Of a stretch of 64,000 nt of DNA, positions 1 through 59,788 are shown piece by piece. The position numbers were made by a program, and so were the translations under genes. The notes below the pieces were generated by a model. That model did not search any database and was not told the origin of the DNA. It saw only the letters and a list, made by a program, of their open reading frames with translations. This stretch comes from a phage, in the sequence record PZ583742.1. One strand, given 5' to 3'. Numbering within the stretch: the stretch's first letter is position 1; every line of letters starts with the position of its first letter.

Positions 1-2
1 AA

Positions 3-86
3 CCCGTTACGGAAGACCTGATTAAGTTGATGTGGGATTCTACTCGCAAACAAATTTGGGAAATCGTAAATGGCATTAGTAAATAA
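3..86 (+). CDS. 3' end of a gene that begins upstream of the window (partial)
   Basis: Open frame from window edge to TAA at 84-86; only 27 codons visible. Confidence 0.25.
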   Translation, partial: PVTEDLIKLMWDSTRKQIWEIVNGISK

Positions 87-270
87 ACCCTTTAAACGGC
101 TTCTTATTGGAGCCGCTTTCAGACTTCGCTCATATGGTAATATCTGTATCAAACAGACCGAAACCGAATACAAAATGATGGGCCAATATTCTGATGGTAT
201 TTTTAAGATTGAGCCTGTAGCCAAGGTTTGGGTCGATTCTCATCAACTTAAGAAATGGTGGCAACGATGA
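70..270 (+). CDS. hypothetical protein (66 aa)
   Basis: ATG ORF upstream of gene 47; no recognisable motif. Confidence 0.3.
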   Translation: MALVNKPFKRLLIGAAFRLRSYGNICIKQTETEYKMMGQYSDGIFKIEPVAKVWVDSHQLKKWWQR

Positions 271-328
271 TAACATGGACAGGTGGCTAATGAACGACGA
301 ACATCCAGATTTTTAAGAGGCTATATGA

Positions 329-502
329 ATGACGAATTCGACGGATTTTGATAAGATTAAATCTGACAAAAATGAGATGATACTTCAATTTGAAGCCGCT
401 CGCATTAAAGCAGAAAATGAAGGTACTATTACCTATAAGCCTATCAAGTTCAGGTCTTCTCATGAACCTCTGTATGGTGTATTAATTGAAAAGGAAGCCT
501 AG
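329..502 (+). CDS. hypothetical small protein (57 aa)
   Basis: ATG 329 with AAGAGG 8 nt upstream; stop sits inside a stem-loop terminator. Confidence 0.4.
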   Translation: MTNSTDFDKIKSDKNEMILQFEAARIKAENEGTITYKPIKFRSSHEPLYGVLIEKEA

Positions 503-515
503 TGCTTCCTTTTTT
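493..515 (+). terminator. intrinsic terminator
   Basis: Stem GGAAGC 493-498 / GCTTCC 504-509 followed by a T run. Confidence 0.55.
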
Positions 516-539
516 GCTTTATATTCGGGATGATAAAAT
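515..539 (+). promoter_or_regulatory. MotA-box middle promoter candidate
   Basis: TGCTTTA at 515-521 and TAAAAT at 534-539, 19 nt between TGCTT and -10 start. Confidence 0.45.
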
Positions 540-559
540 GAACCAACTGAGGAGAGTAT

Positions 560-703
560 ATGGAATTATTTTTAGGATATGTCGTGCTATTCATGGCATT
601 CTACACATTCACAAGAGCTTGTTGGATAGGATTCTTTTCTACTCCTGACGGGTTCATTTCAGTAATTTTATTTTGCATTGCGATAACGGTGCTTGGCTTA
701 TGA
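560..703 (+). CDS. small hydrophobic peptide (47 aa), predicted membrane
   Basis: GAGGAG SD upstream; stop overlaps gene 47 ATG (ATGA). Confidence 0.35.
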   Translation: MELFLGYVVLFMAFYTFTRACWIGFFSTPDGFISVILFCIAITVLGL

Positions 704-1719
704 AAATTTTAAATTTAGGTGATTGGCACTTAGGTGTCAAAGCTGACGACCCATGGGCTCAAAACATTCAACGCGATGGTATTTTACAGGCGATTGCATA
801 TTCCAAAGCGAATGGGATTAAAGTCTGGATTCAATATGGGGATATTTTTGACGTCCGTAAGGCCGTAACGCATAAGACGATGGAATTCAGCCGTGAGATT
901 ATGGAACTCCTTCGTGAAGCAGGAATTACTATGCACACGATAGTCGGGAACCATGACATGAATCTGAAGAATAAGATTCATCCTAATGCTATCACTGAAC
1001 TCCTGAATAAGTATGACCATGTTAAAATCTACGATAAGCCAACGACTGTTGATTTTGACGGTTGTCAGATTGATATGATTCCATGGATGTGTGACGAGAA
1101 CGCAACTGACATTCACCAACATATCAAAACTTCTGGGGCTGAATATTGCATCGGTCACTGGGAATTAACCGGGTTTTATTTCTATAAAGGATTGAAATCC
1201 CACGGACTTGAGCCTGATTTCCTTAAGAAGTACAAGCAAGTTTGGTCTGGTCACTTCCACACAATTTCAGAAGCTGCAAACGTTAAGTACATCGGGACAC
1301 CATGGACATTAACAGCAGGTGACGAGAACGACCCACGCGGGTTCTGGGAATTTGATACCGAAACCGAAGAGATGAAATTTATTCCGAATGAAACCACCTG
1401 GCATCGGAAGATTTTCTATCCAAACGAAACTATTAACTACGACGACTTCAAAGACTTATCAGTCCGTGTTATTGTAGAAAAAGTCGATAAAGACCTGACC
1501 AAGTTCGAATCTGAATTAGAAAAGCGTGTGCATGAATTGCGTGTTGTCAATAAGGTTGATAACAGTGTTGACACATCAGACTCTGATGAAGAGTTAGACA
1601 TAAAACGCTTAACAGATATGATGGCAGAATATATCGATGCATTACCTGACGCTAATGAGAAAGAATCAAAAGCTCTCAAAGCATTGGCCAATAAATTATA
1701 TCTTGAGGTGCAACCGTGA
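700..1719 (+). CDS. 47: recombination endonuclease subunit gp47 (Mre11/SbcD-like)
   Basis: N-terminal MKILNLGDWHLG and GNHD phosphoesterase motifs; 339 aa; followed by gp46. Confidence 0.95.
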   Translation: MKILNLGDWHLGVKADDPWAQNIQRDGILQAIAYSKANGIKVWIQYGDIFDVRKAVTHKTMEFSREIMELLREAGITMHTIVGNHDMNLKNKIHPNAITELLNKYDHVKIYDKPTTVDFDGCQIDMIPWMCDENATDIHQHIKTSGAEYCIGHWELTGFYFYKGLKSHGLEPDFLKKYKQVWSGHFHTISEAANVKYIGTPWTLTAGDENDPRGFWEFDTETEEMKFIPNETTWHRKIFYPNETINYDDFKDLSVRVIVEKVDKDLTKFESELEKRVHELRVVNKVDNSVDTSDSDEELDIKRLTDMMAEYIDALPDANEKESKALKALANKLYLEVQP

Positions 1720-1979
1720 GACTTTATGATTTTAATGAAGCGGGTCTTGAACATATCCGCGAATGTGCTGTGGTTGACGACGATAATCAACCGAATACTA
1801 TTAAGTATTGGTTTGAAGCTATCACTGACCGGGAAACTGGTCAACTTATCAAAGTCTATGTAGTCACCGATTGGGCCGTGGAATTTAGCTTTAATGTAAT
1901 GGAAGATGATACTCCAGAGACATTAATTCATATGGCTGAATCATGCATCAAGGATGCTTATTATGATGAAGACTTTTGA
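1716..1979 (+). CDS. hypothetical acidic protein (87 aa)
   Basis: GTG start overlapping gp47 stop; fills gap between 47 and 46. Confidence 0.35.
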   Translation: MRLYDFNEAGLEHIRECAVVDDDNQPNTIKYWFEAITDRETGQLIKVYVVTDWAVEFSFNVMEDDTPETLIHMAESCIKDAYYDEDF

Positions 1980-2172
1980 ATTTAATCTTGATGATGAATT
2001 TGTAGCAAATATTGATTATACCGAAGAAGATTCTAGATATGTCGGAATAATTTATATCACATCAAAAACGGCGCAGGGAGTGGTTTGCATGGCTGAATTT
2101 GATGAATGCTTTTTAGATTATGATGATATGATAGAATGGTCTAAAAGATACATTAAAAGGAATCTTTTGTGA
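1963..2172 (+). CDS. hypothetical acidic protein (69 aa)
   Basis: ATG with AAGGA upstream; stop overlaps gp46 start. Confidence 0.35.
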   Translation: MMKTFEFNLDDEFVANIDYTEEDSRYVGIIYITSKTAQGVVCMAEFDECFLDYDDMIEWSKRYIKRNLL

Positions 2173-3851
2173 AGACTTTTAAGCTTAAGAAAGTTATCTA
2201 TAAAAATATTATGTCGGTTGGTGCTCAACCGATTACTGTTGAACTGGATAAAGTCCAAAAAACTCTGGTCACCGGCAAGAATGGTGCGGGTAAATCTACG
2301 TTCCTTGAAGCGGTTACCTTTGCTATGTTCGGTAAGCCTTTCCGTGATGTAAAGAAAGGCCAGTTGATTAACTCGAGCAACAAAAAAGATATGCTCGTTG
2401 AATTGTGGATGGAATATGATGGAAAAGAATACTATATCAAACGCGGGCAAAAACCCAATGTTTTTGAAATCTCTTGTGGCGGTAAACGTCTTGATGAATC
2501 TGCCAGCAGTAAAGACTTCCAAGCGGAATTTGAACAGCTCATCGGAATGTCCTATGCAAGCTTCAAACAGATTGTCGTACTCGGCACAGCTGGATATACC
2601 CCTTTTATGGGCCTATCCACTCCTGCAAGAAGAAAACTTGTCGAAGACCTTTTAGAGGTTTCTGTACTGGCCGATATGGATAAGCTGAACAAATCTCTTA
2701 TCCGCGAAGTCAATAGTCAAATCCAGGTGATGGATGTGCAGCATGACGGGATTGTTCAACAGATTAAAATCTATCAGGACAACGAAGACCGTCAAAGAAA
2801 ATTATCAGGTGATAATCTGTTGCGGCTGCAAACGATGTATGATGAACTTGCCACAGAAGCACGTGGAATCAAGACAACTATCGAAGAAGCAACAACAAGA
2901 CTGACCGAGATAATCTTGGGAGAAGACCCTGAGCATGAACTCACGAAGCTAAAGCAGGAATCATTTCTGATTAAGTCGAAGATAGACGATTACCGAAAGG
3001 TTGTTGGTCTGTACGAGAAAGGTGGTTGTTGTCAGACTTGTGCCAGTCAGTTGCATCCAGGAGACCCTATTGTCGCCAGGATTGAGTCAAAGATTGAAGA
3101 ATGTAATGCATCAGCTGATAAGCATAAAGCTCGCCAGAATGCTGTTCAAGAGCAATTTGATACGTATTCTGCTGCAAGACAAAACCAGCGTACAATAGCC
3201 CAAGACATTCAAACTAAGAAACAAACCTTAATCCAGACTGTTGAAAAGGCTAAAAAGGTTAAAGCATTAATCGAGCAAGCTAAGTCAGAATTCATTGACC
3301 ATGCAGCAGACATTAAAATGCTTCAAGACCAGCTTGATAAAATAGTCAAACAGAAATCTGACCTTGTGATGGAAAAATATCAACGTGGCATCCTAACGGA
3401 TATGTTGAAAGATTCCGGTATCAAAGGCGCGATTATTAAGAAATATATTCCTATCTTTAATAAGCAGATAAACGCTTACCTTAAAGTTATGGAAGCTGAT
3501 TATAGCTTTACGTTAGATGAAGAGTTCAACGAAACTATTAAATCTCGTGGACGTGAAGACTTCAGCTATGCATCATTTAGCCAGGGTGAAAAAGCTCGTA
3601 TCGATATTGCATTGCTGTTTACATGGCGTGATATTGCTGCGAAAGTATCTGGTGTTAATATTAACACCTTGATTCTGGATGAAGTTTTTGACTCGGCCAC
3701 TGATGTAGAGGGTGTTAAAGCAATTGCTACCATCCTGAACAAATTGGAAGACACCAACATCTTTATTATCAGTCACCGAGACCATGACCCGGAAGCATAC
3801 GGGCAACATCTCCAGATGAAAAAAGTTGGTCGATTCACTGTTATGGAATAA
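2169..3851 (+). CDS. 46: recombination endonuclease subunit gp46 (Rad50/SbcC-like ATPase)
   Basis: Walker A GKNGAGKST, central coiled coil with CxxC zinc hook, Walker B LILDEVFD; 560 aa; GTG start. Confidence 0.95.
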   Translation: MKTFKLKKVIYKNIMSVGAQPITVELDKVQKTLVTGKNGAGKSTFLEAVTFAMFGKPFRDVKKGQLINSSNKKDMLVELWMEYDGKEYYIKRGQKPNVFEISCGGKRLDESASSKDFQAEFEQLIGMSYASFKQIVVLGTAGYTPFMGLSTPARRKLVEDLLEVSVLADMDKLNKSLIREVNSQIQVMDVQHDGIVQQIKIYQDNEDRQRKLSGDNLLRLQTMYDELATEARGIKTTIEEATTRLTEIILGEDPEHELTKLKQESFLIKSKIDDYRKVVGLYEKGGCCQTCASQLHPGDPIVARIESKIEECNASADKHKARQNAVQEQFDTYSAARQNQRTIAQDIQTKKQTLIQTVEKAKKVKALIEQAKSEFIDHAADIKMLQDQLDKIVKQKSDLVMEKYQRGILTDMLKDSGIKGAIIKKYIPIFNKQINAYLKVMEADYSFTLDEEFNETIKSRGREDFSYASFSQGEKARIDIALLFTWRDIAAKVSGVNINTLILDEVFDSATDVEGVKAIATILNKLEDTNIFIISHRDHDPEAYGQHLQMKKVGRFTVME

Positions 3852-3875
3852 TGCTTTAAACAAGGATGTTATAAT
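3852..3875 (+). promoter_or_regulatory. MotA-box middle promoter candidate
   Basis: TGCTTTA 3852-3858, TATAAT 3870-3875. Confidence 0.45.
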
Positions 3876-3885
3876 AGAGGCTATT

Positions 3886-4077
3886 ATGGCTGACTTCTTA
3901 ACCGGGCAGCATTTACTGGCTGTCCCTGAAATTAAACGGTATGTGTTAGTTAATACCTTTTCGAAAGATGAACACCTTGTTACTGAACGTGACTTACAAA
4001 ACGCTTTCGGTGAAGAATATGTTAAAATAATCGCGAACAGACACAATGCCTGGTTTGCATATGAATACTTTGATTAA
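3886..4077 (+). CDS. hypothetical protein (63 aa)
   Basis: ATG 3886 with AGAGG upstream, just after the middle promoter. Confidence 0.4.
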   Translation: MADFLTGQHLLAVPEIKRYVLVNTFSKDEHLVTERDLQNAFGEEYVKIIANRHNAWFAYEYFD

Positions 4078-4101
4078 TTGATAATGAATAGAGAGAATAT
4101 T

Positions 4102-4509
4102 ATGAACAACGTAACTGCTAAAGATATCCAAGTTAAAACCATCCGCACCGACGCTAACCCACACAACCAAAACCGCATCCGCAAATCCTGGGTCCTGGCA
4201 TGTGATGAAGCATCTGCTGCCCGTCTGCAGTCTCTGCCGCAAGAAATTAAATTCATGCTGTACGGTGTGATTGATACTGATGTATCTGATAAGTGGATTG
4301 AACTGATGCGTAATCACTACAACGATTCACTGGCTGCTGGTGCTAAACTGGTTATCGACCGTGACGGTTCCGAACGTCTCGAAGATGATTACTGTGTTGA
4401 CTTCGACGACCACCTGGTCCAAGCTGGTTCTATTATTGCTGCGCAACTTCCAGAGTATATTGAATCTCTTCCGGAAGCTATCCGCAAACAAATGGCAGTT
4501 GTTGCGTGA
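4102..4509 (+). CDS. RpbA-like protein (by position between 46 and 45 and by size)
   Basis: 135-aa ORF with strongly biased codon use; start choice (4084 vs 4102) uncertain. Confidence 0.4.
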   Translation: MNNVTAKDIQVKTIRTDANPHNQNRIRKSWVLACDEASAARLQSLPQEIKFMLYGVIDTDVSDKWIELMRNHYNDSLAAGAKLVIDRDGSERLEDDYCVDFDDHLVQAGSIIAAQLPEYIESLPEAIRKQMAVVA

Positions 4510-5393
4510 ATTTGATTTATAAAATAACCTTTATAACAAGGGAACAAAATAATGAATTCCCTTGTTATTATATTGGTTCAAAGGTTGATACGACATTTAA
4601 TGGCCAAAATATTCTCGATAAAAATAATAAAATTTATACAGGTTCTCCGAATTCAAAATATACTACGCTGTATAATGAATTAATTGATAGCGGTGACTAT
4701 ATTGTTACTATCATTGGGGAAACAAAACAGGACCCAAGGAAAATAGAAAATATTTTTCAAATGTCAGTTAAAGCTGTAACCAATGAGAAATACTTTAATA
4801 AAACGTATGCACACGACAAAAGCCGCTATGATGCTCCTGGATATGCTCCATACCGAAACTTGAAAACGGGTAAAGTTGTTAAATTACATCCATCTGAACT
4901 TACATCTGATTATGTTGGTGTTCGTAAAGATTGTTCAATTTCAGATAAGCACATTCAAGCAATTAAAGACTTCCAAAAAGAATATTGGACTGACGAAGCT
5001 CGACAAGCAAGGTCTGTTGAAGTCAAAAATCGTTATAAAGATGTTGAGTATGCTTTAAAATTCAAAGCTATAATGAATACATCTGAAGTATATGAAAAAT
5101 ATTTAAAATCAATTACTGAATATTGGAATAATTCAGATAATAGAATAAAGGCTTCAAAACGAGCAACCGAACGAAATGCCAACCCTGAATTTAAAGAAAA
5201 ATTTAGGAAATCTAAAGCAAGAGGAACCTGGTTACAGTATGAAGATGAACTTAAAGCATTGTGGAATGCTTTAGGCCAACCAGGGTATATTAAGTTTAGA
5301 AAACACGCCATTGAACATGGGTTTAATGATGAAAACTATCAGGGTGCAATCCGGTCCTGGTCAAATTATTATGTTAATAGGAAAATGAAATGA
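4506..5393 (+). CDS. GIY-YIG-like homing endonuclease (Seg-like), free-standing
   Basis: N-terminal LIYKITF...CYYIGSK motif pair; AT-rich ORF wedged between conserved genes; GTG start. Confidence 0.5.
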   Translation: MNLIYKITFITREQNNEFPCYYIGSKVDTTFNGQNILDKNNKIYTGSPNSKYTTLYNELIDSGDYIVTIIGETKQDPRKIENIFQMSVKAVTNEKYFNKTYAHDKSRYDAPGYAPYRNLKTGKVVKLHPSELTSDYVGVRKDCSISDKHIQAIKDFQKEYWTDEARQARSVEVKNRYKDVEYALKFKAIMNTSEVYEKYLKSITEYWNNSDNRIKASKRATERNANPEFKEKFRKSKARGTWLQYEDELKALWNALGQPGYIKFRKHAIEHGFNDENYQGAIRSWSNYYVNRKMK

Positions 5394-6085
5394 AATTTAG
5401 TCGTGACACCATCGCAGTTTTGAAAAACTTCACCTCCATCTACTCTGGCATTATGCTTAAACCAGGCAATACCATCCTAACTCGTTCTGTAACTGGAGCG
5501 TCATATGGTGAATCTGAAATCAATGATACAATCGACTTTGAAGCGGCAATTTATGACCTGAACGGCTTCTTAAGTATCCTGGGCCTGGTAACTGACCAAG
5601 CTGAAGTATCTCTGTCTGAAGATGCATCGAATATCATTATCAAAGACCAACGTTCAACGATTCACTGGCCTGCAGCTGACCCGAGCACTATCGTGTTCCC
5701 TGCTAAGAAGATTCCTTTCCCGGTAGCTAAGGTTATCTTCGACCTGAAAGGCAGTGACCTGCAGCAGCTTCTGCGTGTGGCTGGTGGTTTGTCTCTGGAC
5801 ACTTTTGCAATCACCAACAAAGACGGTAAGATTGTTATCCATGGTTATAACCAGCTCGAAGATAAAGAATTAGCGCGTCCATTGTATTCCCTGGTGTGTG
5901 GCGATTACGAAGGCGATGCAGCGTTTAAATTTATCATTAACAAACTGAATATGAAAATGATTCCGGCTGATTACCGTGTTATGCTTTGGGCGAAAGATGA
6001 TAAATTTGCTACGAAGTTTGAAGGCACACAAGCAAGCTATGTGATTGCAATGGAACAAGGCTCTAGCCACGAATTCCAAGATTAA
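5390..6085 (+). CDS. 45: sliding clamp gp45
   Basis: 231 aa, similar to T4 gp45 along its length (e.g. FPAKKIPFPVA, LWAKD). Confidence 0.95.
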   Translation: MKFSRDTIAVLKNFTSIYSGIMLKPGNTILTRSVTGASYGESEINDTIDFEAAIYDLNGFLSILGLVTDQAEVSLSEDASNIIIKDQRSTIHWPAADPSTIVFPAKKIPFPVAKVIFDLKGSDLQQLLRVAGGLSLDTFAITNKDGKIVIHGYNQLEDKELARPLYSLVCGDYEGDAAFKFIINKLNMKMIPADYRVMLWAKDDKFATKFEGTQASYVIAMEQGSSHEFQD

Positions 6086-6088
6086 TAA

Positions 6089-6106
6089 ATGGGGCTTCGG
6101 CCCCAT
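6089..6106 (+). other. UUCG-tetraloop hairpin (no T run)
   Basis: ATGGGGC-TTCG-GCCCCAT between genes 45 and 44. Confidence 0.5.
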
Positions 6107-6143
6107 GGAGTACAAAGTAGAAACTAATATGAGGAAAATAATA

Positions 6144-7121
6144 ATGGCAACAGTAATTAACGGTTTGACAGTCAATGAATCCGACTTCATGTGGGAACAA
6201 AAATATCGCCCAGGTACATTATCAGAGTGTATTCTCCCGGCCCATGATAAAGAAACATTAGAGGCGATTGTTAAAAAAGGTTTGATTCCTAACTTGATTC
6301 TGGTCAGTAGTTCCCCTGGTACTGGTAAGACAACAGTTGCAAAAGCTATGTGTGCAGATACGAATTCTGATATGCTGTTTGTTAACGGCTCCGATTGCCG
6401 AATTGACTTTGTGCGTAATGAATTGACTCGCTTTGCATCATCCAAATCAATCGAAGGTCGCCGCAAGGTAATCGTTATCGATGAGTTCGACCGTGCAGGT
6501 CTGGCTGAATCACAACGGCACCTCCGTAGCTTTATGGAAGCTTATTCGAGTAACTGTTCAATCATTATGACCGCGAACAATATCGATGGTATCATCACTC
6601 CGTTGCAGTCTCGTTGTCGCGTCATTAAATTCGGTGAAGCAACTCCGGCTGACCAGACTACCATGATGAAAGAGATGATTCATCGTGCAGTCGCGGTATG
6701 TAAAAACGAAGGCGTTGAAATCGAAGACCTGAAAGTTGTTGCTGCTCTGGTTAAGCATAACTTCCCGGACCTGCGTAAGACAATTAACGAGCTTGACCGT
6801 TACTCTGCAAAGGGTGTTATCGATTCTGGTATTCTGAGTATCGTGACAAACAATCGCACACCAATTGATGATGTGATTGATGCCCTTAAGGACCGTAACT
6901 TTAAAGTTCTCCGTGGCTTGGCTCCTAAGCATGCAAATGATTATTCAAGCTTCATTGCAAAGCTGGCTGATGAAATGTATGGCAAACTGACTGGTGCAAG
7001 TATCATCCGCATGTATGAGATTGTAGGTGAGAATAATCAGTATCATGGCATTGCGGCCAATACCGAAGTACACTTGACTTATCTGTTTGCTCAACTGGCT
7101 GGGGAAATGAAATGGCTGTAA
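6144..7121 (+). CDS. 44: clamp loader large subunit gp44 (AAA+)
   Basis: Walker A SPGTGKTT, Walker B VIVIDEFD, SRC motif; start at 6144 after AGGA SD (upstream extension of the ORF-track frame rejected). Confidence 0.95.
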   Translation: MATVINGLTVNESDFMWEQKYRPGTLSECILPAHDKETLEAIVKKGLIPNLILVSSSPGTGKTTVAKAMCADTNSDMLFVNGSDCRIDFVRNELTRFASSKSIEGRRKVIVIDEFDRAGLAESQRHLRSFMEAYSSNCSIIMTANNIDGIITPLQSRCRVIKFGEATPADQTTMMKEMIHRAVAVCKNEGVEIEDLKVVAALVKHNFPDLRKTINELDRYSAKGVIDSGILSIVTNNRTPIDDVIDALKDRNFKVLRGLAPKHANDYSSFIAKLADEMYGKLTGASIIRMYEIVGENNQYHGIAANTEVHLTYLFAQLAGEMKWL

Positions 7122-7690
7122 GTCTCTTTGATGATGACGTTCAATTAAACGAACATGAGGTTGCGTGGAAATCACGCGACTTTAACAAAATTCAGGAATT
7201 GTCCGATTCATACAAAGAGAAAGCAGAAAATGAATTGTTCGCGATTCTTAACGACATAACCGTTAGCAAAAAACCACGGAACCTTATTCAATCAGAAAAC
7301 TACAATAAATTCTGGCTGGATAACGCATTGAGTCAACATGTTGATTGCATCATGCAGGTGAACGTGATGAACTTAATCGGTTCCGGGTTAACAGACCAGC
7401 AGCATTATAATTATTTGTTGCATGCAGTTCCACAAGGCAAGCGTTATGGCAAATGGGCCAAGGCTGAACCGGATGTAGTCAACGTCCAGCTTGTGTTAAA
7501 GCTTTTGATGAAATATTATACAATTAATGCAGATGATGCTTTGATGTATATGGAAACATTGAAAGTCAAAGGTAGTCTTAAAGATGTTTTGAAAAAGACA
7601 AAAGGTCTGGTAACGGATGAATTCTTAAAGACCGTTACCAGTAATGTGAAAGAACAAAAAGAAATTAAAAAACAAATATTGGAATGGTAA
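7112..7690 (+). CDS. 62: clamp loader small subunit gp62
   Basis: 192 aa, start overlaps gp44 end; matches T4 gp62 (GKRYGKWAK). Confidence 0.9.
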   Translation: MAVSLFDDDVQLNEHEVAWKSRDFNKIQELSDSYKEKAENELFAILNDITVSKKPRNLIQSENYNKFWLDNALSQHVDCIMQVNVMNLIGSGLTDQQHYNYLLHAVPQGKRYGKWAKAEPDVVNVQLVLKLLMKYYTINADDALMYMETLKVKGSLKDVLKKTKGLVTDEFLKTVTSNVKEQKEIKKQILEW

Positions 7691-7691
7691 A

Positions 7692-8060
7692 ATGATTGAA
7701 ATTACATTAAAGCAACCTGAAGACTTCCTGAAAGTTAAAGAAACTCTGACCCGTATGGGCATCGCAAATAATAAAGACCGTGTACTGTACCAGAGCTGCC
7801 ACATCCTCCAAAAGCAAGGTCGTTACTATATTGTTCACTTCAAAGAAATGCTGCGCATGGATGGTCGTCAGGTGGATATTGACGGCGAAGACTATCAGCG
7901 CCGTGATTCCATTGCTCAACTGCTCGAAGACTGGGGCTTAATTGCTATCAAAGAAGAAGAGCATAATGAATTGTTCGCAGTAACAAACAACTTCCGTGTT
8001 ATCTCATTCAAACAAAAAGACGACTGGAAGCTCGTAGCCAAATATACAATTGGTAATTGA
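7692..8060 (+). CDS. regA: translational repressor RegA
   Basis: 122 aa; MIEITLK...FRVISFKQK close to T4 RegA. Confidence 0.95.
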   Translation: MIEITLKQPEDFLKVKETLTRMGIANNKDRVLYQSCHILQKQGRYYIVHFKEMLRMDGRQVDIDGEDYQRRDSIAQLLEDWGLIAIKEEEHNELFAVTNNFRVISFKQKDDWKLVAKYTIGN

Positions 8061-8061
8061 T

Positions 8062-8277
8062 ATGAAGCATGAAATTGAAACATGTGAACGCCTTAAAGAA
8101 GTATACGGACTTTCCCCAACTCAAACTATTTTTGACCTTTCCGAAGAACTTCAAATAGAATTTCAAAAGGAACTCAATAAATTATTGCATCCTGGTCAGA
8201 GAGTCTTCCAGGCTATGGTTAGAACTAAAGATGAAAATGGTAATCCGACTATCGAACGTCGTACAATAGAAATTTAA
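8062..8277 (+). CDS. hypothetical protein (71 aa)
   Basis: ORF between regA and gene 43, ends at terminator hairpin. Confidence 0.4.
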   Translation: MKHEIETCERLKEVYGLSPTQTIFDLSEELQIEFQKELNKLLHPGQRVFQAMVRTKDENGNPTIERRTIEI

Positions 8278-8282
8278 AGCAA

Positions 8283-8301
8283 AGGGACTTCGGTCCCTTT
8301 T
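8283..8301 (+). terminator. intrinsic terminator (UUCG tetraloop)
   Basis: AGGGAC-TTCG-GTCCCT then TTTT. Confidence 0.55.
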
Positions 8302-8362
8302 GTAGTATAATAGCGTCAAGTCATAAAACAAAAGTCAATCACTCGACTATAAAGGAAACCAA

Positions 8363-11077
8363 ATGCAAGAATTTTATTTAACTATCGAACAAATCGGTGA
8401 CAATCTGCTTGAACGATACATTGACAAGAACGGTCATGAACGTGTTCGTGAAATCCCTTATGCTCCATGCTTGTTTATGCACGCCCGGGAAGGCCAGGCT
8501 GCAAAGTATACAGACATCTATAATAAAGGTTGTGTGAAAAAAGAATTCGATTCCATGCGTGATGCATCCCAGTGGATGAAGCGAATGAATGACATGGGCC
8601 TCGAAGTTATGGGTATGGATGACTTTAAACTCGCATACTTGTCCGACCGTTACCCACACGAAATCAAATATGATTCAAGTAAAATCCGTGTTGCTAACTT
8701 CGATATCGAGGTGACATCTCCTGATGGGTTCCCTGAACCGTCTGAAGCACGTCACCCTATTGATGCCCTGACGCACTATGATTCGGTAGACGATAAATTC
8801 TATGTCTTTGACCTTTTGGGCTCACCATACGCCACTGTGGAGCAATGGTCTATTGATATTGCTGCTAAGCTGCAGGAAGACGGTGGTGATGAAGTCCCTG
8901 AAGAAATCCTGGAAAAAATTGTTTATATGGCTTTCGATTCAGAAGAAGAAATGCTCCAGCAGTATTTGGTATTCTGGAACGAGAAAACTCCGGTTATGTT
9001 AACCGGTTGGAACATCGAGAAGTTTGATATTCCATATATCTACAACCGTCTTAAAAATGTATTTGGTGAAGCTACGGCAAAACGTCTGAGCCCACATCGT
9101 CGTACAAAAGTTAAGGTCATTAACAACGGCTTTGGTGAAGAACAAGAAATCATTCAGATTCTGGGTATCTCTGTTCTGGATTATCTGGACCTGTATAAAA
9201 AGTTCAGCTTCACAAACCAACCGTCTTATTCGTTGGATTATGTTGCGGAATCTGAACTGGGTGTTGGTAAACTCCCGTATGATGGTCCGATTTCTAAACT
9301 GCGTGAATCAAATCACCAGCGGTATATTTCTTATAACATCATCGACGTTTATCGTGTTGTGCAGATTGACCGTAAGCGGCAGTTTATTAACCTGAGTCAG
9401 TCAATGGGTTATTACGCAAAAATGCAGATTCAGTCTGTATTCAGCCCAATCAAAACTTGGGATGCGATTATCTTTAACAGCCTGAAGACTCAAAACAAAG
9501 TCATTCCGGAAACCAAATCGCATGTTCGTCAATCGTTCCCTGGTGCATTTGTTAAGGAACCTATTCCGAACGCGTACAAATATGTGATGAGCTGTGACTT
9601 AACATCTCTGTATCCAAGCATCATCCGACAGATTAATATCAGTCCAGAAACGATTGCCGGTTCATTTGCCCCAGCGCCGATGTATGAATACATCGCAGGA
9701 ACTGCTGACCGTCCATCTGATACATTTAGTTGTGCTCCAAATGGTATGATGTATTTTAAAGATGTTGCGGGTATTATTCCGACAGAAGTCACCAAGGTGT
9801 TTAATCAGCGTAAAGAGCACAAAGGCTATATGCTTGCGGCTCAACGTAATGGTGAACTGATTAAGGAAGCTCTGCGTAATCCAGGAACTGGCACAACCGA
9901 ACCAGAAGTTGATTATCGTCATGACTTTGATGACAATATGAAAACGGCCCTGCATGGTCTGAATCAAACAGTCCTGAATGGTATGTTGTACAAAGCGCAG
10001 ATGGAAGAAGTTGCAGGCATGACCGCACAGATTAACCGTAAACTGCTTATCAACAGTTGTTATGGCGCTCTGGGCAATATCTGGTTCCGTTACTTTGACC
10101 TGCGAAATGCAACCGCGATTACATCTTTCGGACAACTTGCATTGCAGTGGATTGAGCGTAAAGTTAACGAATACTTCGATAGTGTCTGTGGGACAAGCGG
10201 CGAAACTTATGTGTTCTATGGCGATACTGACTCCATTTATATCCAGTGCGATAACCTGATTAAAAAGGTTGGTGGCGAATCTAAATTCCGTGATACAAAC
10301 CACCTGGTTGACTTCATGGACAAGTTTGCGAAAGACCGTCTGGAACCGGCAATCGATAAAGCTTTCCGTGAGCTGGCTGAATACATGAACAACAAACAGC
10401 ACCTTATGTTTATGGACCGTGAAGCGATTGCATGTCCTCCGCTGGGTTCTAAGGGTGTGGGTGGATTCTGGACGGCGAAGAAGCGTTATGCACTGAACGT
10501 GTACGATATGGAAGGCACACGATATGCTGTTCCGAAATTGAAAATCATGGGTCTGGAAACTCAAAAGTCGAGTACTCCAAAGGCATGTCAGAAAGCTCTG
10601 AAAGAATGTATCCGCCGTATGCTGCAAGAAGGTGAAGAATCTCTGCAGACATACTTCAAGGAATTCAATAAGGAATTTAATGAGCTTAACTACATGACCA
10701 TCGCAGGTGTATCATCGGTTAACAACATCCAGAAATATAATGAAGGCGGTTTCCCTGGATTTAAGTGCCCGGCTCATATCAAAGGTGTGCTTGCATATAT
10801 GCGTGCAACTAAAGGTCTGAAGACTGTTCCACAAATCATGGAAGGGGAAAAGGTGTATGTACTTCCTCTTAAAGTCGGTAACCCGTTTGGTGAAACCGTG
10901 ATTGCATGGCCATCTGGGATTGAACTCCCGATTGAAATCCGTGACCAGGTTCTGCAGTGGATGGACTACAACATACTGTTCCAGAAGACTTTTGTTAAGC
11001 CATTAACAGGTTTCTCTGAAGCTGCAAAGGTTGATTACGAAAAGAAAGCAACTCTTTTTGATATGTTTGACTTTTAA
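8363..11077 (+). CDS. 43: DNA polymerase gp43 (family B)
   Basis: Exo motif FDIE, motif A DLTSLYPSII, motif C YGDTDS; 904 aa. Confidence 0.97.
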   Translation: MQEFYLTIEQIGDNLLERYIDKNGHERVREIPYAPCLFMHAREGQAAKYTDIYNKGCVKKEFDSMRDASQWMKRMNDMGLEVMGMDDFKLAYLSDRYPHEIKYDSSKIRVANFDIEVTSPDGFPEPSEARHPIDALTHYDSVDDKFYVFDLLGSPYATVEQWSIDIAAKLQEDGGDEVPEEILEKIVYMAFDSEEEMLQQYLVFWNEKTPVMLTGWNIEKFDIPYIYNRLKNVFGEATAKRLSPHRRTKVKVINNGFGEEQEIIQILGISVLDYLDLYKKFSFTNQPSYSLDYVAESELGVGKLPYDGPISKLRESNHQRYISYNIIDVYRVVQIDRKRQFINLSQSMGYYAKMQIQSVFSPIKTWDAIIFNSLKTQNKVIPETKSHVRQSFPGAFVKEPIPNAYKYVMSCDLTSLYPSIIRQINISPETIAGSFAPAPMYEYIAGTADRPSDTFSCAPNGMMYFKDVAGIIPTEVTKVFNQRKEHKGYMLAAQRNGELIKEALRNPGTGTTEPEVDYRHDFDDNMKTALHGLNQTVLNGMLYKAQMEEVAGMTAQINRKLLINSCYGALGNIWFRYFDLRNATAITSFGQLALQWIERKVNEYFDSVCGTSGETYVFYGDTDSIYIQCDNLIKKVGGESKFRDTNHLVDFMDKFAKDRLEPAIDKAFRELAEYMNNKQHLMFMDREAIACPPLGSKGVGGFWTAKKRYALNVYDMEGTRYAVPKLKIMGLETQKSSTPKACQKALKECIRRMLQEGEESLQTYFKEFNKEFNELNYMTIAGVSSVNNIQKYNEGGFPGFKCPAHIKGVLAYMRATKGLKTVPQIMEGEKVYVLPLKVGNPFGETVIAWPSGIELPIEIRDQVLQWMDYNILFQKTFVKPLTGFSEAAKVDYEKKATLFDMFDF

Positions 11078-11080
11078 GTG

Positions 11081-11109
11081 TTTACAACGGCAATGGATTG
11101 CCGTATGAT
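11081..11109 (+). promoter_or_regulatory. early sigma70 promoter with stem-loop in spacer
   Basis: TTTACA 11081-11086, 17-nt spacer holding CGGCAAT/ATTGCCG hairpin, TATGAT 11104-11109. Confidence 0.55.
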
Positions 11110-11146
11110 TACCTCATCAACTGATGAATAACTTAAGGATATTAAA

Positions 11147-11389
11147 ATGGAAACATTAATTGCGGGTACTGTTGTTCTTGGTGCGGGTTCTTTCTTCCTG
11201 GCTGCACTGGCATATTTTCTGCCGTGGATTATCGCGCTGCTGCGTGGTACCAAAAGTAATTGTGGAATCTTCTTTGTTAACCTCCTGTTAGGTTGGACAA
11301 TGGTCGGATGGTTTATTGCATTTATCTGGGCACTCGTTGCTGAACGTAAATCAAACGCACAAGTAATTATCATCAAGGAAGCAAAATGA
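11147..11389 (+). CDS. imm: superinfection immunity protein Imm
   Basis: 80-aa two-TM protein with LPWIIALLRG...LLGWTMVGW motifs; position after gene 43. Confidence 0.7.
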   Translation: METLIAGTVVLGAGSFFLAALAYFLPWIIALLRGTKSNCGIFFVNLLLGWTMVGWFIAFIWALVAERKSNAQVIIIKEAK

Positions 11390-11529
11390 AGATAATTACA
11401 ATTATTGTACTGATTGCATTTTTTAGTATGTCAATCTATTGGGCAATAATGACTCCGCATATGATTCCAACTTTAATTTTGGGTTGGGTATTTTTGGGGC
11501 TCCAAGCCCGCTATGAATGTTTTAATTGA
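11386..11529 (+). CDS. small hydrophobic peptide (47 aa)
   Basis: ATGA overlap with imm stop; single predicted TM segment. Confidence 0.3.
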   Translation: MKIITIIVLIAFFSMSIYWAIMTPHMIPTLILGWVFLGLQARYECFN

Positions 11530-11539
11530 GGAAAATACA

Positions 11540-12043
11540 ATGAAAAAGTTAGCTATCGCAGCTGTTATGCTGCTATCTGGTTGTGCTTACCAGGGTGATG
11601 TTGTTAATGCCAACGAGATTGGTAAAGCGCGAATTGCTGCAGACCGTCAGGTGCATAATGGTTCCTTTGATTTCAAAGGCGGTACTGGACTTATCTACAA
11701 ACGCGACAACAATCAATGTGGAAACAACTGCGCGAAATATGCTCAACAAGAAATTGAGTACAAACGCGAGCAAGCTGCGAAGCATGACGAAATCATTGCC
11801 AAGCTGGAAGCAGAAACTAAGCGACAAAATGACCTGGATACTGTTAACCAGATTTCACAGGTCTGCATGTCATATATCAATATGCAGATAAACATCATGC
11901 GCGCAGAAGCTTATCAGGCAGCGGAGACGGGTTCTCCAAAAGCTAATGAGTACCGCGATATGTATCAGCGTTCTGCTCAAAACCGTCTGAGCTATATTAA
12001 TAAATGTGTGGCTAAAGAGAAAGCACGCCAAGGTATTAACTGA
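11540..12043 (+). CDS. predicted lipoprotein (167 aa)
   Basis: Signal peptide MKKLAIAAVMLLSGC with lipobox LSGC; GAGGA SD upstream. Confidence 0.5.
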   Translation: MKKLAIAAVMLLSGCAYQGDVVNANEIGKARIAADRQVHNGSFDFKGGTGLIYKRDNNQCGNNCAKYAQQEIEYKREQAAKHDEIIAKLEAETKRQNDLDTVNQISQVCMSYINMQINIMRAEAYQAAETGSPKANEYRDMYQRSAQNRLSYINKCVAKEKARQGIN

Positions 12044-12150
12044 TGTTATTATTACTTCTGATTGTTGTAACAGTAATTGGTTTGTTGCTATTAGAAAAGC
12101 GTAATAAGCATTTGAATGAAGAAAACTGGAAACGTGGTAACGTTTACTAA
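12043..12150 (+). CDS. small hydrophobic peptide (35 aa)
   Basis: TGATG overlap with lipoprotein stop; Leu-rich TM segment. Confidence 0.3.
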   Translation: MLLLLLIVVTVIGLLLLEKRNKHLNEENWKRGNVY

Positions 12151-12177
12151 ATTGCTCTGAACTGCGAGAAGAATATT

Positions 12178-12306
12178 ATGATTGGTATGTTATTGATTAG
12201 CCTATGGCTGTTGTCTGCATTTGGTATTGGGTTTATGTACTGGTGGGACAAACGTCAGACCCGGAAGATTGTTGAACGTGCAATTAATCGTGGATTCAAT
12301 CGTTAA
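12178..12306 (+). CDS. small hydrophobic peptide (42 aa)
   Basis: ATG after AGAAGAA purine run; TM segment then basic tail. Confidence 0.3.
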   Translation: MIGMLLISLWLLSAFGIGFMYWWDKRQTRKIVERAINRGFNR

Positions 12307-12307
12307 T

Positions 12308-12332
12308 TGCTCTAAAAATACAGTGATATAAT
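12308..12332 (+). promoter_or_regulatory. MotA-box-like middle promoter candidate for uvsX
   Basis: TGCTCTA 12308-12314 (one mismatch) and TATAAT 12327-12332. Confidence 0.35.
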
Positions 12333-12385
12333 TATCCTATCTTAAACCTGTGAGAAAAATATAATGGTGCCTATGGAAAAAATGA

Positions 12386-13898: not shown

Positions 13899-15322
13899 AA
13901 ACTATTTTATCCCAGCTACTCTTTAACAAGGAATATTTTGTTAAAGTCTGGCCATATCTGAATAATACATATTTTGAAAAGGGTCCTGCAAAGACCCTTT
14001 TTAATACGATTAACGAACACGTAAAAGAATATCAAGCGGTACCAACTAAGACTGCACTTGATATCGCGCTCGACAGTTCTGACCTTTCTGAAGTCGAATA
14101 TGAAGGCACAAAGAAACTCTTAGGAGTCCTGGCCGATACTCCAGAAGACCAGGAATGGTTGGTTAAAGAAACCGAGAAGTATGTACAGAAGTCTGCGATG
14201 TTCAATGCCACATCCAGGATTATCGAAATCCAGAGTAATGCCGAACTTCCGAAAGATAAACGTGATAAACGAATCCCGGATATTGGTGCTATCACCGACA
14301 TCATGCGCGATGCATTGTCTATCTGTTTTGACTCTGCTCTGGGCCATGACTGGTTAAACGATTACGAAGCTCGATTCCAGACTTATCTGAACAAATCGAA
14401 GAAGGTTCCGTTCCGTATTAACATCCTGAATAAAATCACAAAGGGTGGGGTTGAGTACGGTACAGAGAACGTTTTACTGGCTGGGACAAACGTCGGCAAA
14501 TCCCTTGGACTTTGTTCGTTAGCGGCTGACTATCTTCAGACTGGTCATAACGTGCTTTATATAAGCATGGAAATGGCTGAAGAAGTATGTGCCAAACGTA
14601 TTGATGCCAACTTGCTGGATGTATCTCTGGATGATATTGATGAAGGTCATGTGTCATGGGCAGAATACAAAAGTAAGATGGAAAAATGGCGCGCAGCCGG
14701 GACTCTTGGGACTCTGAAGATAAAACAATATCCAACTGGTGGTGCTCATGCGGATACCTTCCGTGCATTATTGAATGAATACAAACTGAAACAAGGGTTT
14801 GTGCCGGATGTGATTATTGTTGACTACCTGGCAATCTGTGCAAGCTCAAGATTGAAAACGTTTACCGAAAACAGTTACGGCCTGATTAAAATGGTTGCAG
14901 AAGAACTTCGTGGCCTGGCGGTCGAGAAAAATGTGGTCCTGTGGACTGCAGCACAGACAACCAGGGGCGCGAACGTTGCAGCTGAGATTGATATGGCTGA
15001 CATTGCAGAATCCTTTGGTATTGCTCACACGGCCGATTTTATGTTGGGTGTTGTTGAGACTGAAGAATTCGCTCAAATGGGTCTGCAGTTAATCAAACAG
15101 CTTAAGTCTCGTTATGGTGATAAGAACTACTATAATAAATTCAAGATGGGTGTTAAGAAAGGTAATCAGCGCTGGTATGAGGTTGATGATGATTCGGCTC
15201 CTAAACAAGGCCCTACGGTTAAAGAAGCCACTGGTGAGATGAATCGCCAGGCTGAAATGAATAGACAAACCAGGGTCAACAGGAGCGACCTGGACGACCT
15301 TGCTGCTCAAATGAAATTCTAA
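13892..15322 (+). CDS. 41: replicative DNA helicase gp41 (DnaB-like)
   Basis: Walker A GTNVGKS; MVETILSQLLF aligns with the T4 gp41 N-terminus; GTG start 6 nt after GAGGTGG. Confidence 0.95.
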   Translation: MVETILSQLLFNKEYFVKVWPYLNNTYFEKGPAKTLFNTINEHVKEYQAVPTKTALDIALDSSDLSEVEYEGTKKLLGVLADTPEDQEWLVKETEKYVQKSAMFNATSRIIEIQSNAELPKDKRDKRIPDIGAITDIMRDALSICFDSALGHDWLNDYEARFQTYLNKSKKVPFRINILNKITKGGVEYGTENVLLAGTNVGKSLGLCSLAADYLQTGHNVLYISMEMAEEVCAKRIDANLLDVSLDDIDEGHVSWAEYKSKMEKWRAAGTLGTLKIKQYPTGGAHADTFRALLNEYKLKQGFVPDVIIVDYLAICASSRLKTFTENSYGLIKMVAEELRGLAVEKNVVLWTAAQTTRGANVAAEIDMADIAESFGIAHTADFMLGVVETEEFAQMGLQLIKQLKSRYGDKNYYNKFKMGVKKGNQRWYEVDDDSAPKQGPTVKEATGEMNRQAEMNRQTRVNRSDLDDLAAQMKF

Positions 15323-15340
15323 AGACCTTCGGGTCTTTTT
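15322..15340 (+). terminator. intrinsic terminator (UUCG tetraloop)
   Basis: AAGACC-TTCG-GGTCTT then TTTT, overlapping gp41 stop. Confidence 0.6.
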
Positions 15341-15350
15341 CATTTAGAGG

Positions 15351-15379
15351 TTTACAACACCATAAAAGGGGTGTACCAT
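15351..15379 (+). promoter_or_regulatory. early sigma70 promoter
   Basis: TTTACA, 17-nt spacer, TACCAT. Confidence 0.5.
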
Positions 15380-15380
15380 T

Positions 15381-15659: not shown

Positions 15660-15688
15660 TGTACAAGCCCCTTGACTTAGGACATAAT
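15660..15688 (+). promoter_or_regulatory. early sigma70 promoter
   Basis: TGTACA, 17-nt spacer, CATAAT; followed by CCACACTGAGTTAC leader. Confidence 0.55.
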
Positions 15689-18427: not shown

Positions 18428-18595
18428 ATGAAAACATTCAAAGATTTTATCAACGAAAATATGGTTGCCGGTGATGCGGGTGGAAACCCAACTAATATCG
18501 CAACAGGTACCACTTCCGGGGCAGTTGTCAATAAAGGCCCTGAACAAATCCCATCAAAAAAGCGTAAGAACAAAGACGATAAACCTACAGTATAA
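18428..18595 (+). CDS. small Gly/Thr-rich protein (55 aa) with basic tail
   Basis: ATG after AAAGGGGG; below the 60-aa ORF-track cutoff. Confidence 0.35.
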   Translation: MKTFKDFINENMVAGDAGGNPTNIATGTTSGAVVNKGPEQIPSKKRKNKDDKPTV

Positions 18596-18613
18596 TGGTC
18601 CTTCGGGGCCATT
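18594..18613 (+). other. UUCG-tetraloop hairpin before gene 61 SD (no T run)
   Basis: AATGGTCC-TTCG-GGGCCATT, 8-bp stem with one G-U pair. Confidence 0.45.
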
Positions 18614-18627
18614 GAAATGAGGAAACT

Positions 18628-21961: not shown

Positions 21962-21966
21962 TTATA

Positions 21967-21989
21967 GGGAACCTTCGGGTTCCCTTTTT
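21967..21989 (+). terminator. intrinsic terminator (UUCG tetraloop)
   Basis: GGGAACC-TTCG-GGTTCCC then TTTTT. Confidence 0.6.
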
Positions 21990-31051: not shown

Positions 31052-31312
31052 ATGAAATACATTAATCGTTCTATTGCAGCACTGGTACTGGCGGTTTCAT
31101 TGGCTAGTTGTACTGATGCAGATAATGCCATTCGTGTATTAGATGCAAACGGCTATGAACAAATCCAAATCACCGGTTATAACTGGTTGGGTTGCTCTGA
31201 AGATGATTTCCAACACACAGGCTTTACGGCCGTAGGGCCAACTGGTAAGAAAGTTAAAGGAACTGTTTGTTCTGGATTGCTGTTTAAGAATTCAACCATT
31301 CGATTTGAATAA
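31052..31312 (+). CDS. predicted lipoprotein (86 aa)
   Basis: Signal peptide with lipobox LASC; GAGGA SD. Confidence 0.5.
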   Translation: MKYINRSIAALVLAVSLASCTDADNAIRVLDANGYEQIQITGYNWLGCSEDDFQHTGFTAVGPTGKKVKGTVCSGLLFKNSTIRFE

Positions 31313-31329
31313 GGCCTTCGGGCCTTTTT
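31312..31329 (+). terminator. intrinsic terminator (UUCG tetraloop)
   Basis: AGGCC-TTCG-GGCCT then TTTT. Confidence 0.55.
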
Positions 31330-34101: not shown

Positions 34102-34106
34102 CCAAA

Positions 34107-34128
34107 AGGACCTTCGGGTCCTTTTTTA
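34107..34128 (+). terminator. intrinsic terminator (UUCG tetraloop)
   Basis: AGGACC-TTCG-GGTCCT then TTTTTT. Confidence 0.6.
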
Positions 34129-37868: not shown

Positions 37869-37882
37869 GGGGCTTCGGCCCC
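37869..37882 (+). other. UUCG-tetraloop hairpin (no T run) before next SD
   Basis: GGGGC-TTCG-GCCCC, same element as 6091-6104. Confidence 0.5.
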
Positions 37883-43149: not shown

Positions 43150-43244
43150 GTTTTGGAGTTGAGTTTGCATTGCTTTGTATTTTCGCGGCAATCGCAGGTG
43201 TGATTGTTGGTATGTTTATTGGTAATAAGATAGATAAAGACTAG
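43146..43244 (+). CDS. small hydrophobic peptide (32 aa)
   Basis: ATGA overlap with gp52 stop. Confidence 0.3.
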   Translation: MSFGVEFALLCIFAAIAGVIVGMFIGNKIDKD

Positions 43245-43265
43245 GACCCTTCGGGGTCCTTTTTT
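43243..43265 (+). terminator. intrinsic terminator (UUCG tetraloop)
   Basis: AGGACCC-TTCG-GGGTCCT then TTTTT. Confidence 0.6.
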
Positions 43266-47350: not shown

Positions 47351-47361
47351 ATAAACCTCCA

Positions 47362-47377
47362 AGGGGCCGAAGCCCCT
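47362..47377 (-). other. UUCG-tetraloop hairpin between genes 37 and 38
   Basis: Minus-strand RNA AGGGGC-UUCG-GCCCCU just upstream of gene 38 SD. Confidence 0.5.
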
Positions 47378-47381
47378 CTTA

Positions 47382-51418: not shown

Positions 51419-51436
51419 AGGACTCCGAAGAGTCCT
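51419..51436 (-). terminator. intrinsic terminator after gene 35
   Basis: AGGACTC-loop-GAGTCCT with T run downstream on the minus strand; overlaps gene 35 stop. Confidence 0.5.
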
Positions 51437-59759: not shown

Positions 59760-59765
59760 TATAAG

Positions 59766-59788
59766 GGGACCTTCGGGTCCCTTTTTTA
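59766..59788 (+). terminator. intrinsic terminator (UUCG tetraloop)
   Basis: GGGACC-TTCG-GGTCCC then TTTTTT. Confidence 0.6.

Follow-up and report, generated by a model that had tools for sequence, protein, structure and literature searches.

Why should a phage place compact, UUCG-capped hairpins between neighbouring genes of an operon and leave out the U tract of a terminator? An initial annotation of the 64,000-nt stretch of phage DNA analysed here (sequence record PZ583742.1, hereafter the window) had pointed to four such structures, at the 45/44 junction, before gene 61, after rIIB and at the 37/38 junction, and had proposed that they may act as RNA stability or processing elements or modulate translational coupling.

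The closest relatives of the window are the Escherichia phages TH41, UPEC01 and VR20 and the Shigella phage SP18 (95-98.5% identity, 2 kb); judged by this similarity, it is a T4-like myovirus of the VR20/SP18 group. Its + strand corresponds to the T4 minus strand, with genes in the order 45, 44, 62, regA, 43 ... 41 ... 61.1, 61 ... rIIA, rIIB, and with late genes 34-38 encoded by the - strand, roughly between 45.9 and 56.5 kb. The gene map was made by heuristic ORF calling and includes a few false antisense calls. The proteins flanking the four hairpins match the sliding clamp, the clamp loader, DNA primase, RIIB, and the distal long tail fibre subunit and adhesin, in keeping with the gene names originally assigned, and the ORF upstream of gene 61 can now be named as a 55-aa homologue of T4 61.1.

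All four hairpins are present (Table 1). Their original coordinates hold for 45/44 and rIIB (6089-6106 and 37869-37882), and the other two extend slightly further than described, to 18593-18614 instead of 18594-18613 and to 47361-47378 instead of 47362-47377. The GGGGC/GCCCC stem attributed to the whole set is found at sites 1, 3 and 4; site 2 has a GGUCC/GGGCC stem. None of the four carries a U tract, as reported, the 8 nt after the stems holding 1, 1, 2 and 3 T. Placement just upstream of a ribosome-binding site (RBS), the remaining structural claim, is borne out at three sites, where the stem ends 0-4 nt from the Shine-Dalgarno (SD) sequence (4 nt at sites 2 and 3, directly adjoining GGAGG at site 4). 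The 45/44 hairpin ends 23 nt before the gene 44 SD and 37 nt before its ATG, and is better described as lying 3 nt past the gene 45 stop than as RBS-adjacent. Proximity to the stop is shared by all four sites: the stems begin 0-7 nt past the upstream stop codon, which lies 7 nt ahead of the stem at site 3, is doubled and adjoins the 5' side of the stem at site 4, and falls within the 5' arm itself at site 2.

Table 1. UUCG-capped and other intercistronic hairpins of the window, with strand, structure and flanking features
Feature	Coordinates (strand)	Stem-loop and predicted stability	Flanking features
Site 1, 45/44 hairpin	6089..6106 (+)	AUGGGGC-UUCG-GCCCCAU, 7 bp, -12.3 kcal/mol	gene 45 stop 6083-6085, second TAA 6086-6088; gene 44 SD GAGGA 6130-6134, ATG 6144
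Site 2, 61.1/61 hairpin	18593..18614 (+)	UAAUGGUCC-UUCG-GGGCCAUUG, 9 bp with two G.U pairs, -11.5 kcal/mol	61.1-homologue stop TAA 18593-18595; gene 61 primase SD GAGG 18619-18622, ATG 18628
Site 3, rIIB/65-aa ORF hairpin	37869..37882 (+)	GGGGC-UUCG-GCCCC, 5 bp, -9.6 kcal/mol	rIIB stop 37859-37861; 65-aa ORF SD GAGG 37887-37890, ATG 37895
Site 4, 37/38 hairpin	47361..47378 (-)	GAGGGGC-UUCG-GCCCCUU, 7 bp, -12.5 kcal/mol	gene 37 stop 47384-47382, second TAA 47381-47379; gene 38 adhesin SD GGAGG 47360-47356, ATG 47350
T-run UUCG hairpin, regA/43 junction	8281..8300 (+)		then bare TATAAT
T-run UUCG terminator hairpin	15321..15338 (+)		overlaps gene 41 stop; then early-promoter-like GTTTACA
T-run UUCG hairpin	21966..21985 (+)		runs into MotA-box-like TTTGCTTTTA, then TATAAT
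T-run UUCG hairpin	31311..31326 (+)		overlaps MotA box TTTGCTTTA, then TATAAT
T-run UUCG terminator hairpin	34104..34125 (+)		early-type promoter probable
UUCG terminator hairpin	43243..43260 (+)		then early promoter (GTGTACA ... CATAAT)
T-run UUCG hairpin	51419..51436 (-)		then late-promoter motif TATAAATA
UUCG terminator hairpin	59763..59784 (+)		3 nt past stop of 303-aa ORF 58848-59759; then early promoter
U-less intercistronic hairpin, AAAU loop	30241..30264 (+)	10 bp, -13.5 kcal/mol	adjoins AUGAGGAG
U-less intercistronic hairpin, AUAU loop	33913..33932 (+)	8 bp, -12.5 kcal/mol	stop 6 nt upstream, GGAG SD downstream
U-less intercistronic hairpin, UUUG loop	41432..41447 (+)	6 bp, -10 kcal/mol	adjoins CCUGAGGAAA

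Predicted stabilities of the four hairpins range from -9.6 to -12.5 kcal/mol for 14-22 nt (z-scores -2.5 to -4.2), with 4-8 further pairs beyond the closing C-G, and all four are predicted to form still when a wider context (76-101 nt) is folded. The intergenic gaps that hold them measure 31-58 nt, and 10-37 nt separate hairpin from ATG. A search for early, MotA-box and late promoter motifs between hairpin and ATG found none at the four sites, where the SD alone precedes the ATG. Sites 1 and 2 were absent from the output of a sense-strand terminator scan of positions 1-20,000, and an Rfam scan of the entire window at the gathering threshold returned no family. As these hairpins lack a U tract and no promoter motif precedes the next gene, polymerase must read through them.

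Two short motifs at these junctions were noted in passing. An ATG within the 3' arm of the 45/44 hairpin lies in frame with the gene 44 start, 13 codons upstream of it (window 6105-6146), lacks an SD and is probably not used. Directly 5' of the 61.1/61 hairpin stands a TATAAT (or TATGAT; window 18591-18596) that is kept in diverged phages (loci L032-L049), even when it lies beyond the stop codon. A promoter at this site was considered and is not supported: no -35 element, MotA box or late motif is found at the right distance, and the transcription start would fall inside the hairpin.

To what extent are the four hairpins part of a larger population? Across both strands of the window we counted 13 C(UUCG)G hairpins with at least 4 further pairs; 200 dinucleotide shuffles yielded 0.33 on average and never more than 2. 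UUCG is the commonest tetraloop among stems of at least 6 bp. The 40 CTTCGG hexamers comprise 12 intergenic copies on the sense strand, one intergenic copy on the antisense strand and 27 coding copies. Every one of the 12 sense-strand intergenic copies forms a hairpin, compared with 3 of the 28 elsewhere (Fisher p = 8e-8); the antisense intergenic copy forms none, and the hairpins formed by 3 of the 27 coding copies are weak. Because the intergenic hairpins always carry UUCG on the mRNA strand, selection appears to act on RNA rather than on a DNA palindrome.

The 12 intergenic hairpins divide into eight with a T run and four U-less ones, and the latter coincide with the set originally singled out, which is thus complete. 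Stems start between -3 and +7 nt of the upstream stop in 10 of the 12. Promoter-like motifs lie downstream of all eight T-run hairpins, which therefore resemble terminator/promoter cassettes. Loops other than UUCG cap at least three more U-less hairpins situated between a stop and an SD (Table 1), so the intra-operon class is not tied to UUCG.

The T-run hairpins have features of their own. A cassette in which a UUCG terminator hairpin and its T run are joined to an early promoter of T4 type (AAAGTAGTGTACAA ... CATAATGATTCC) is repeated at window 15321-15411, 43243-43340 and 59763-59860 (also 34104-34170; repeat families D2, D4 and D9), and these copies look like PeSL elements; the 303-aa ORF preceding the 59763 copy is taken to be gene 32 by its size and map position. 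At 21966-22015 and 31311-31350, the T run of the terminator merges into a MotA-box-like TTTGCTTT(T)A with a TATAAT 12-13 bp further on, and terminator and middle promoter appear to overlap; the same layout occurs in T4 at 36607-36626 and 5381-5398.

Other structures and repeats are scattered through the window. Two 50-nt repeats (29597-29646 and 40846-40895, 94% identical) consist of an early-promoter -35 GTGTACA, a hairpin TGGGGTCA-GAGTATAA-TGACCCCA with a -10 TATAAT in its loop, and CTGGAG. Two perfect stems, one of 15 bp at 23823-23858 (-21.8 kcal/mol) and one of 13 bp at 39027-39060 (-16.6 kcal/mol), contain the next gene's start codon or SD in the 3' arm and are candidate RBS-sequestering structures. 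A 56-nt direct repeat (17623-17678 and 17975-18030, 88% identity) spans, in two neighbouring small ORFs, the 3' end and the RBS that follows it, and its sequence suggests that these ORFs are tandem paralogues.

To compare orthologous junctions, relatives of gp44, gp61, rIIB and gp38 were taken from viral contigs. At 45/44, a hairpin stands right behind the gene 45 stop from close relatives down to 57% gp44 identity, T4 included, and across 10 lineages the stem lies 0-11 nt past the stop and 27-39 nt short of the ATG. Among 13 distinct UUCG variants the loop and the closing C-G are invariant, and both sides of the stem have changed at 7 of 8 pairs. Paired cells amount to 82.7%, whereas shuffles give 63.4% and slid partners 17-59%; as the alignment is anchored on the loop and the sequences are related, the shuffle control overstates independence and the slid-partner control is the fairer of the two. 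The JS98 group has GGGAGG-AAAUU-CCUCCC at this place instead, and locus L010 a CUUGU loop. In T4, GAGGGCUUCGGCCUUU stands directly behind the gene 45 stop and is followed by AUAAUUUA, the hairpin lying at NC_000866 31,899-31,914; compared with that of the window, it is weaker in its 3' arm (GCCUUU) and richer in U in its tail. From its sequence and place, the window hairpin is the positional orthologue of T4's own.

Two insertions at this junction bear on the gene to which the hairpin belongs. In VR20 (L001, 939-1517), a 192-aa homing endonuclease gene (phrog_314), absent from the window, lies between the hairpin-GGAG of gene 45 and gene 44. The hairpin remains with gene 45, and gene 44 keeps the same RBS without a hairpin; behind the hairpin comes GGAGAATAAAATG, which is the SD of the inserted gene and a perfect match to the RegB consensus. 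In locus L003 a different insertion is present, and the hairpin has been lost.

The other junctions retain a stem-loop in more variable form. Relatives with a hairpin at 61.1/61 have UCCG, UCUG, AUAU (with a T run) or UUAAUU loops, and T4-like loci have no hairpin before gene 61. At the rIIB junction, close relatives are identical to the window, and distant ones have a UUCG hairpin with a T run and the SD directly after it. The 37/38 hairpin adjoins a GGAG SD in 13 of 13 related loci, with UUCG, UUAG, CUCG, AUU, AAC or AAAU loops. Across these alignments the conserved element is the stem-loop; the U tract is labile, and the loop is mostly, not always, UUCG. That the hairpin persists while the U tract comes and goes at orthologous junctions points to a role independent of termination. 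Together, the comparative data show an mRNA structure that, to judge from its conservation, is under selection, read through and anchored to the 3' end of the upstream cistron.

Structures of this kind are already known. The intercistronic C(UUCG)G hairpins of T4 reportedly led to the discovery of the UUCG tetraloop. Hairpins of the form (X)2-8CUUCGG(Y)2-8 are common in phage intergenic regions, especially those of T4, with varied functions (Tuerk et al. 1988, as summarized in PMC8948821), and a repeat of the T4 sense/antisense CUUCGG count by the Gold laboratory in 2020 gave an asymmetry like that of the window (PMC7165471). In T4 1-50 kb, we found at least 3 further pairs around 10 of 10 sense-strand CTTCGG copies and 0 of 11 antisense ones, the sense-strand set including the 45/44, regA/43 and gene 60 bypass hairpins. 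The window hairpins have in common with this class (PNAS 85:1364) the complementary arms around CUUCGG, the intergenic abundance and the restriction to the sense strand; they differ in stem sequence and in nothing essential. The four are intra-operon members of the T4-type C(UUCG)G hairpin class, so that the finding is a re-observation of a published class, and the function suggested for them matches published speculation.

Two further hairpins were seen in the T4 sequence (L076). The one at regA/43 (29952-29969) is followed by UUGGAGUAUAAU, and its loop GCTTC lies at -33 to -29 of a TATAAT, the position of a MotA box. Within gene 40 (22329-22348), a strong UUCG hairpin (UCCCCCUCUUCGGAGGGGGA) lies inside the coding sequence.

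Three better-characterized elements resemble the four hairpins in part. Intrinsic terminators have the GC-rich hairpin as well, but their U tract (at least about 5 U in 8 nt) is missing at all four sites. PeSL (promoter-early stem-loop) cassettes also place a GC-rich stem-loop just past a stop, followed by an SD and a start codon. The eight T-run hairpins of the window fit PeSL or its middle/late-promoter variants (Arbiol et al. 2010; Comeau et al. 2014), whereas the four U-less ones, in their gaps of 31-58 nt, have neither a U tract nor an early promoter (GTTTAC-type -35 plus -10) before the SD. The T4 gene 60 bypass stem-loop (T4 2834-2857) is likewise UUCG-capped and begins at or next to a stop codon; unlike it, the window sites have no conserved matched codon pair, carry tandem stops at sites 1 and 4, and have their own SD and AUG downstream.

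Several functions were tried and rejected. Matched take-off and landing codons for a gene 60-like bypass occur at site 3 only (window 37856-37897), where the UUU before the rIIB stop equals the UUU before the downstream AUG, 33 nt apart across the hairpin; this match is missing in the distant relatives L054-L056 and was judged to be chance, and sites 1, 2 and 4 have none. A stimulator of stop-codon read-through does not accord with the tandem TAATAA stops at sites 1 and 4, and stems of 5-9 bp are too short for RNase III. As a general explanation, an RBS insulator also failed: when SD-AUG opening was modelled for the intact hairpin and for disrupted and deleted versions, using two sizes of context, no consistent benefit emerged.

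What role, then, do the hairpins play? A compact hairpin between a stop and the next SD is well placed against exonucleases, and for this reason we favour, tentatively and by analogy, the possibility that the U-less hairpins are read-through exonuclease barriers protecting the upstream cistron. Each would be carried on a polycistronic mRNA (45-44, 61.1-61, rIIB-next ORF and 37-38). RNA polymerase would read through, and a compact, stable stem-loop would fold just behind the upstream stop, where it could act post-transcriptionally to block exonucleases that work in the 3'-5' direction, namely RNase II, RNase R and PNPase. Their entry points would be cuts further downstream, whether by RNase E or by RegB acting on an SD of the GGAG type. 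Adjacent cistrons would then decay independently, with the upstream one lasting longer. Elsewhere in the window, the same hairpin with a U tract would form the terminator half of terminator/promoter cassettes.

The analogy is with intercistronic decay terminators and 3' stabilisers, such as those of the Rhodobacter puf operon, the E. coli malEFG REP and the U-less stem-loops that end trimmed Rho-dependent transcripts. In both cases a stable stem-loop is read through between co-transcribed cistrons without a termination signal, with a proposed exonuclease stop and differential segment stability. The phage hairpins are far smaller (14-22 nt), and the likeness is one of mechanism by analogy, not of a shared sequence family. 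In T4, 3' exonucleases gain access where RegB and RNase E have cut between genes, and degrade the fragments upstream of the cut (PMC3014915); mRNA stabilisation is among the functions proposed for CUUCGG hairpins (PMC8948821). The closeness of the 45/44 stem to the stop across lineages, its retention by gene 45 in VR20 and the four perfect RegB-consensus SDs of the window also count in favour of a barrier. Of the functions initially put forward, a termination-independent role at the RNA level is thus upheld by strand bias, covariation and read-through, and we infer stability or processing as the best fit to the stop-proximal placement and the T4 literature (PMC3014915).

Several points weigh against an exonuclease barrier. 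RegB targets GGAG, whereas the SD reads GAGG at sites 2 and 3. The proximity to an SD at three of the four sites would suit a translational role just as well. Against PNPase or RNase R, stems of 5-7 bp may act as a brake and not as a block, and a ribosome terminating at site 1, 2 or 4 would, from its known footprint, unfold the hairpin there partly or completely. A literature search for T4 transcript 3'-end maps yielded nothing usable for these junctions.

The proximity of three hairpins to the SD (0-4 nt), together with the constant contact between the 37/38 hairpin and GGAG in all 13 related loci whatever the loop, speaks for a second reading, in which the hairpin shapes initiation at the downstream RBS. 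It might do so by limiting re-initiation, so that downstream translation needs fresh 30S binding or regulators, or by partly masking the SD, which upstream translation would be needed to open. At site 2, the helix is lengthened coaxially in the predicted minimum-energy fold and CCUAC pairs with the SD GAGG, and opening the RBS is modelled to cost 0.9-4.1 kcal/mol more with the hairpin than in disrupted or deleted mutants. Primase, the product of gene 61, is of low abundance in T4, which would also suit this reading. Set against it are the 45/44 hairpin, which stands 23 nt away from the SD and, across 10 lineages, 27-39 nt away from the ATG, and VR20, whose gene 44 has the same RBS with no hairpin upstream. 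Moreover, when the hairpin is deleted in the model, the energy needed to open the RBS shifts by anything from -0.7 to +1.6 kcal/mol, falling in some cases and rising in others, and stop-to-stem distances of 0-7 nt define no fixed geometry with a terminating ribosome. Modulation of translational coupling, the other function originally proposed, may therefore apply at three sites but fits 45/44 poorly, and the modelled effect on RBS accessibility is inconsistent. We regard a translational role as unlikely for the set as a whole, and as a fair rival to the exonuclease barrier at sites 2-4.

Less probable still is a leaky attenuator or pause site, at which some polymerases would pause or terminate and lower the dose of the downstream genes (44, 61, 38) relative to the upstream ones. 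Intrinsic termination requires a U tract, and the stems of the window are followed by 1-3 T per 8 nt. Relatives supply evidence on the other side, in that the same hairpin with a T run, followed by an SD without a promoter, occurs at rIIB (L054-L061) and before gene 61 (L035, L037, L040), and the T4 45/44 hairpin is followed by AUAAUUUA; PeSL stem-loops, moreover, terminate transcription in reporter assays (PMC2839356). We disfavour attenuation because the U tract is absent and because, according to PMC4824070, the ribosome suppresses terminator hairpins almost completely when they lie a few bp past an ORF that is being translated.

Processing by RegB, in T4 a nuclease with the strong consensus GGAGRAYARAA (PMC3014915), deserves separate mention. 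Directly behind the 45/44 hairpin stands GGAGUACAAAG (6107..6117, + strand), which matches this consensus at 9 of 11 positions; lying 34 nt from the ATG, it is not the gene 44 SD, and its GGAG is kept in several clades. The hairpin-GGAG layout recurs, in several clades at 45/44, in VR20 and at T4 regA/43 as AAGGGGCUUCGGCCCCUUAUUUGGAGUAUAAU. Were the hairpin and the non-SD GGAG (6089-6117) a dedicated RegB processing module, a cut at GG^AG, 1-3 nt past the stem, would separate the 45 message from the 44-62 message, and the 45 mRNA, ending in a hairpin that leaves scarcely any 3' overhang, would resist RNase II and RNase R. We consider such a module improbable. The regB gene lies outside the window; at site 4, GGAGGUUUAUA is a poor match to the consensus and belongs to a late transcript, a kind that resists RegB in T4 (PMC3014915). 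Perfect RegB-consensus SDs, GGAGAATAAAA(TG), precede four early genes of the window (16100, 39407, 43350 and 61279), a motif match that suggests RegB-type control of these genes.

Equally doubtful is a protective role at the 5' end, in which RNase E would cut an AU-rich stretch upstream and the stem-loop would then shield the downstream mRNA from RNase E/G. RAUUW-type motifs, the RNase E motif reportedly described by Ehretsmann et al. in 1992, are found immediately 5' of the hairpins at sites 1 (GAUUA) and 3 (AAUUA). No such motif precedes sites 2 and 4, and one so short is expected often in sequence with 60% A+T. The stabilisation of T4 gene 32 mRNA by a 5' CUUCGG hairpin (PMC8948821) and the dependence of RNase E and RNase G on the substrate 5' end (PMC3014915) favour 5' protection; the VR20 hairpin, which stays with the upstream gene, counts against it.

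Lastly, it is very unlikely that the hairpins are DNA-level linkers or relics, remnants of terminator/promoter cassettes that serve modular recombination without an RNA function of their own (or, in a minor variant, terminators for antisense transcripts, the stops reading UUAUUA on the opposite strand and a terminator scan flagging minus-strand 6106-6089, followed by TTATTAAT): the VR20 insertion right behind the hairpin-GGAG, the L003 insertion that removed the hairpin and the PeSL stem-loops reported at indel boundaries (PMC2839356, PMC4122927) would suit such an origin, but the strict sense orientation of UUCG and the compensatory stem changes around an invariant loop argue that the folded mRNA strand is selected, and the hairpin is kept down to 57% gp44 identity.

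These results add little new biology, in that T4-type intercistronic C(UUCG)G hairpins have been found again in a phage of the VR20/SP18 group. They are modestly useful in showing that the hairpins of a single window split cleanly into those with a U tract and a promoter-like motif and those with neither, within operons. For the annotation of such genomes, U-less intra-operon hairpins should not be labelled terminators.
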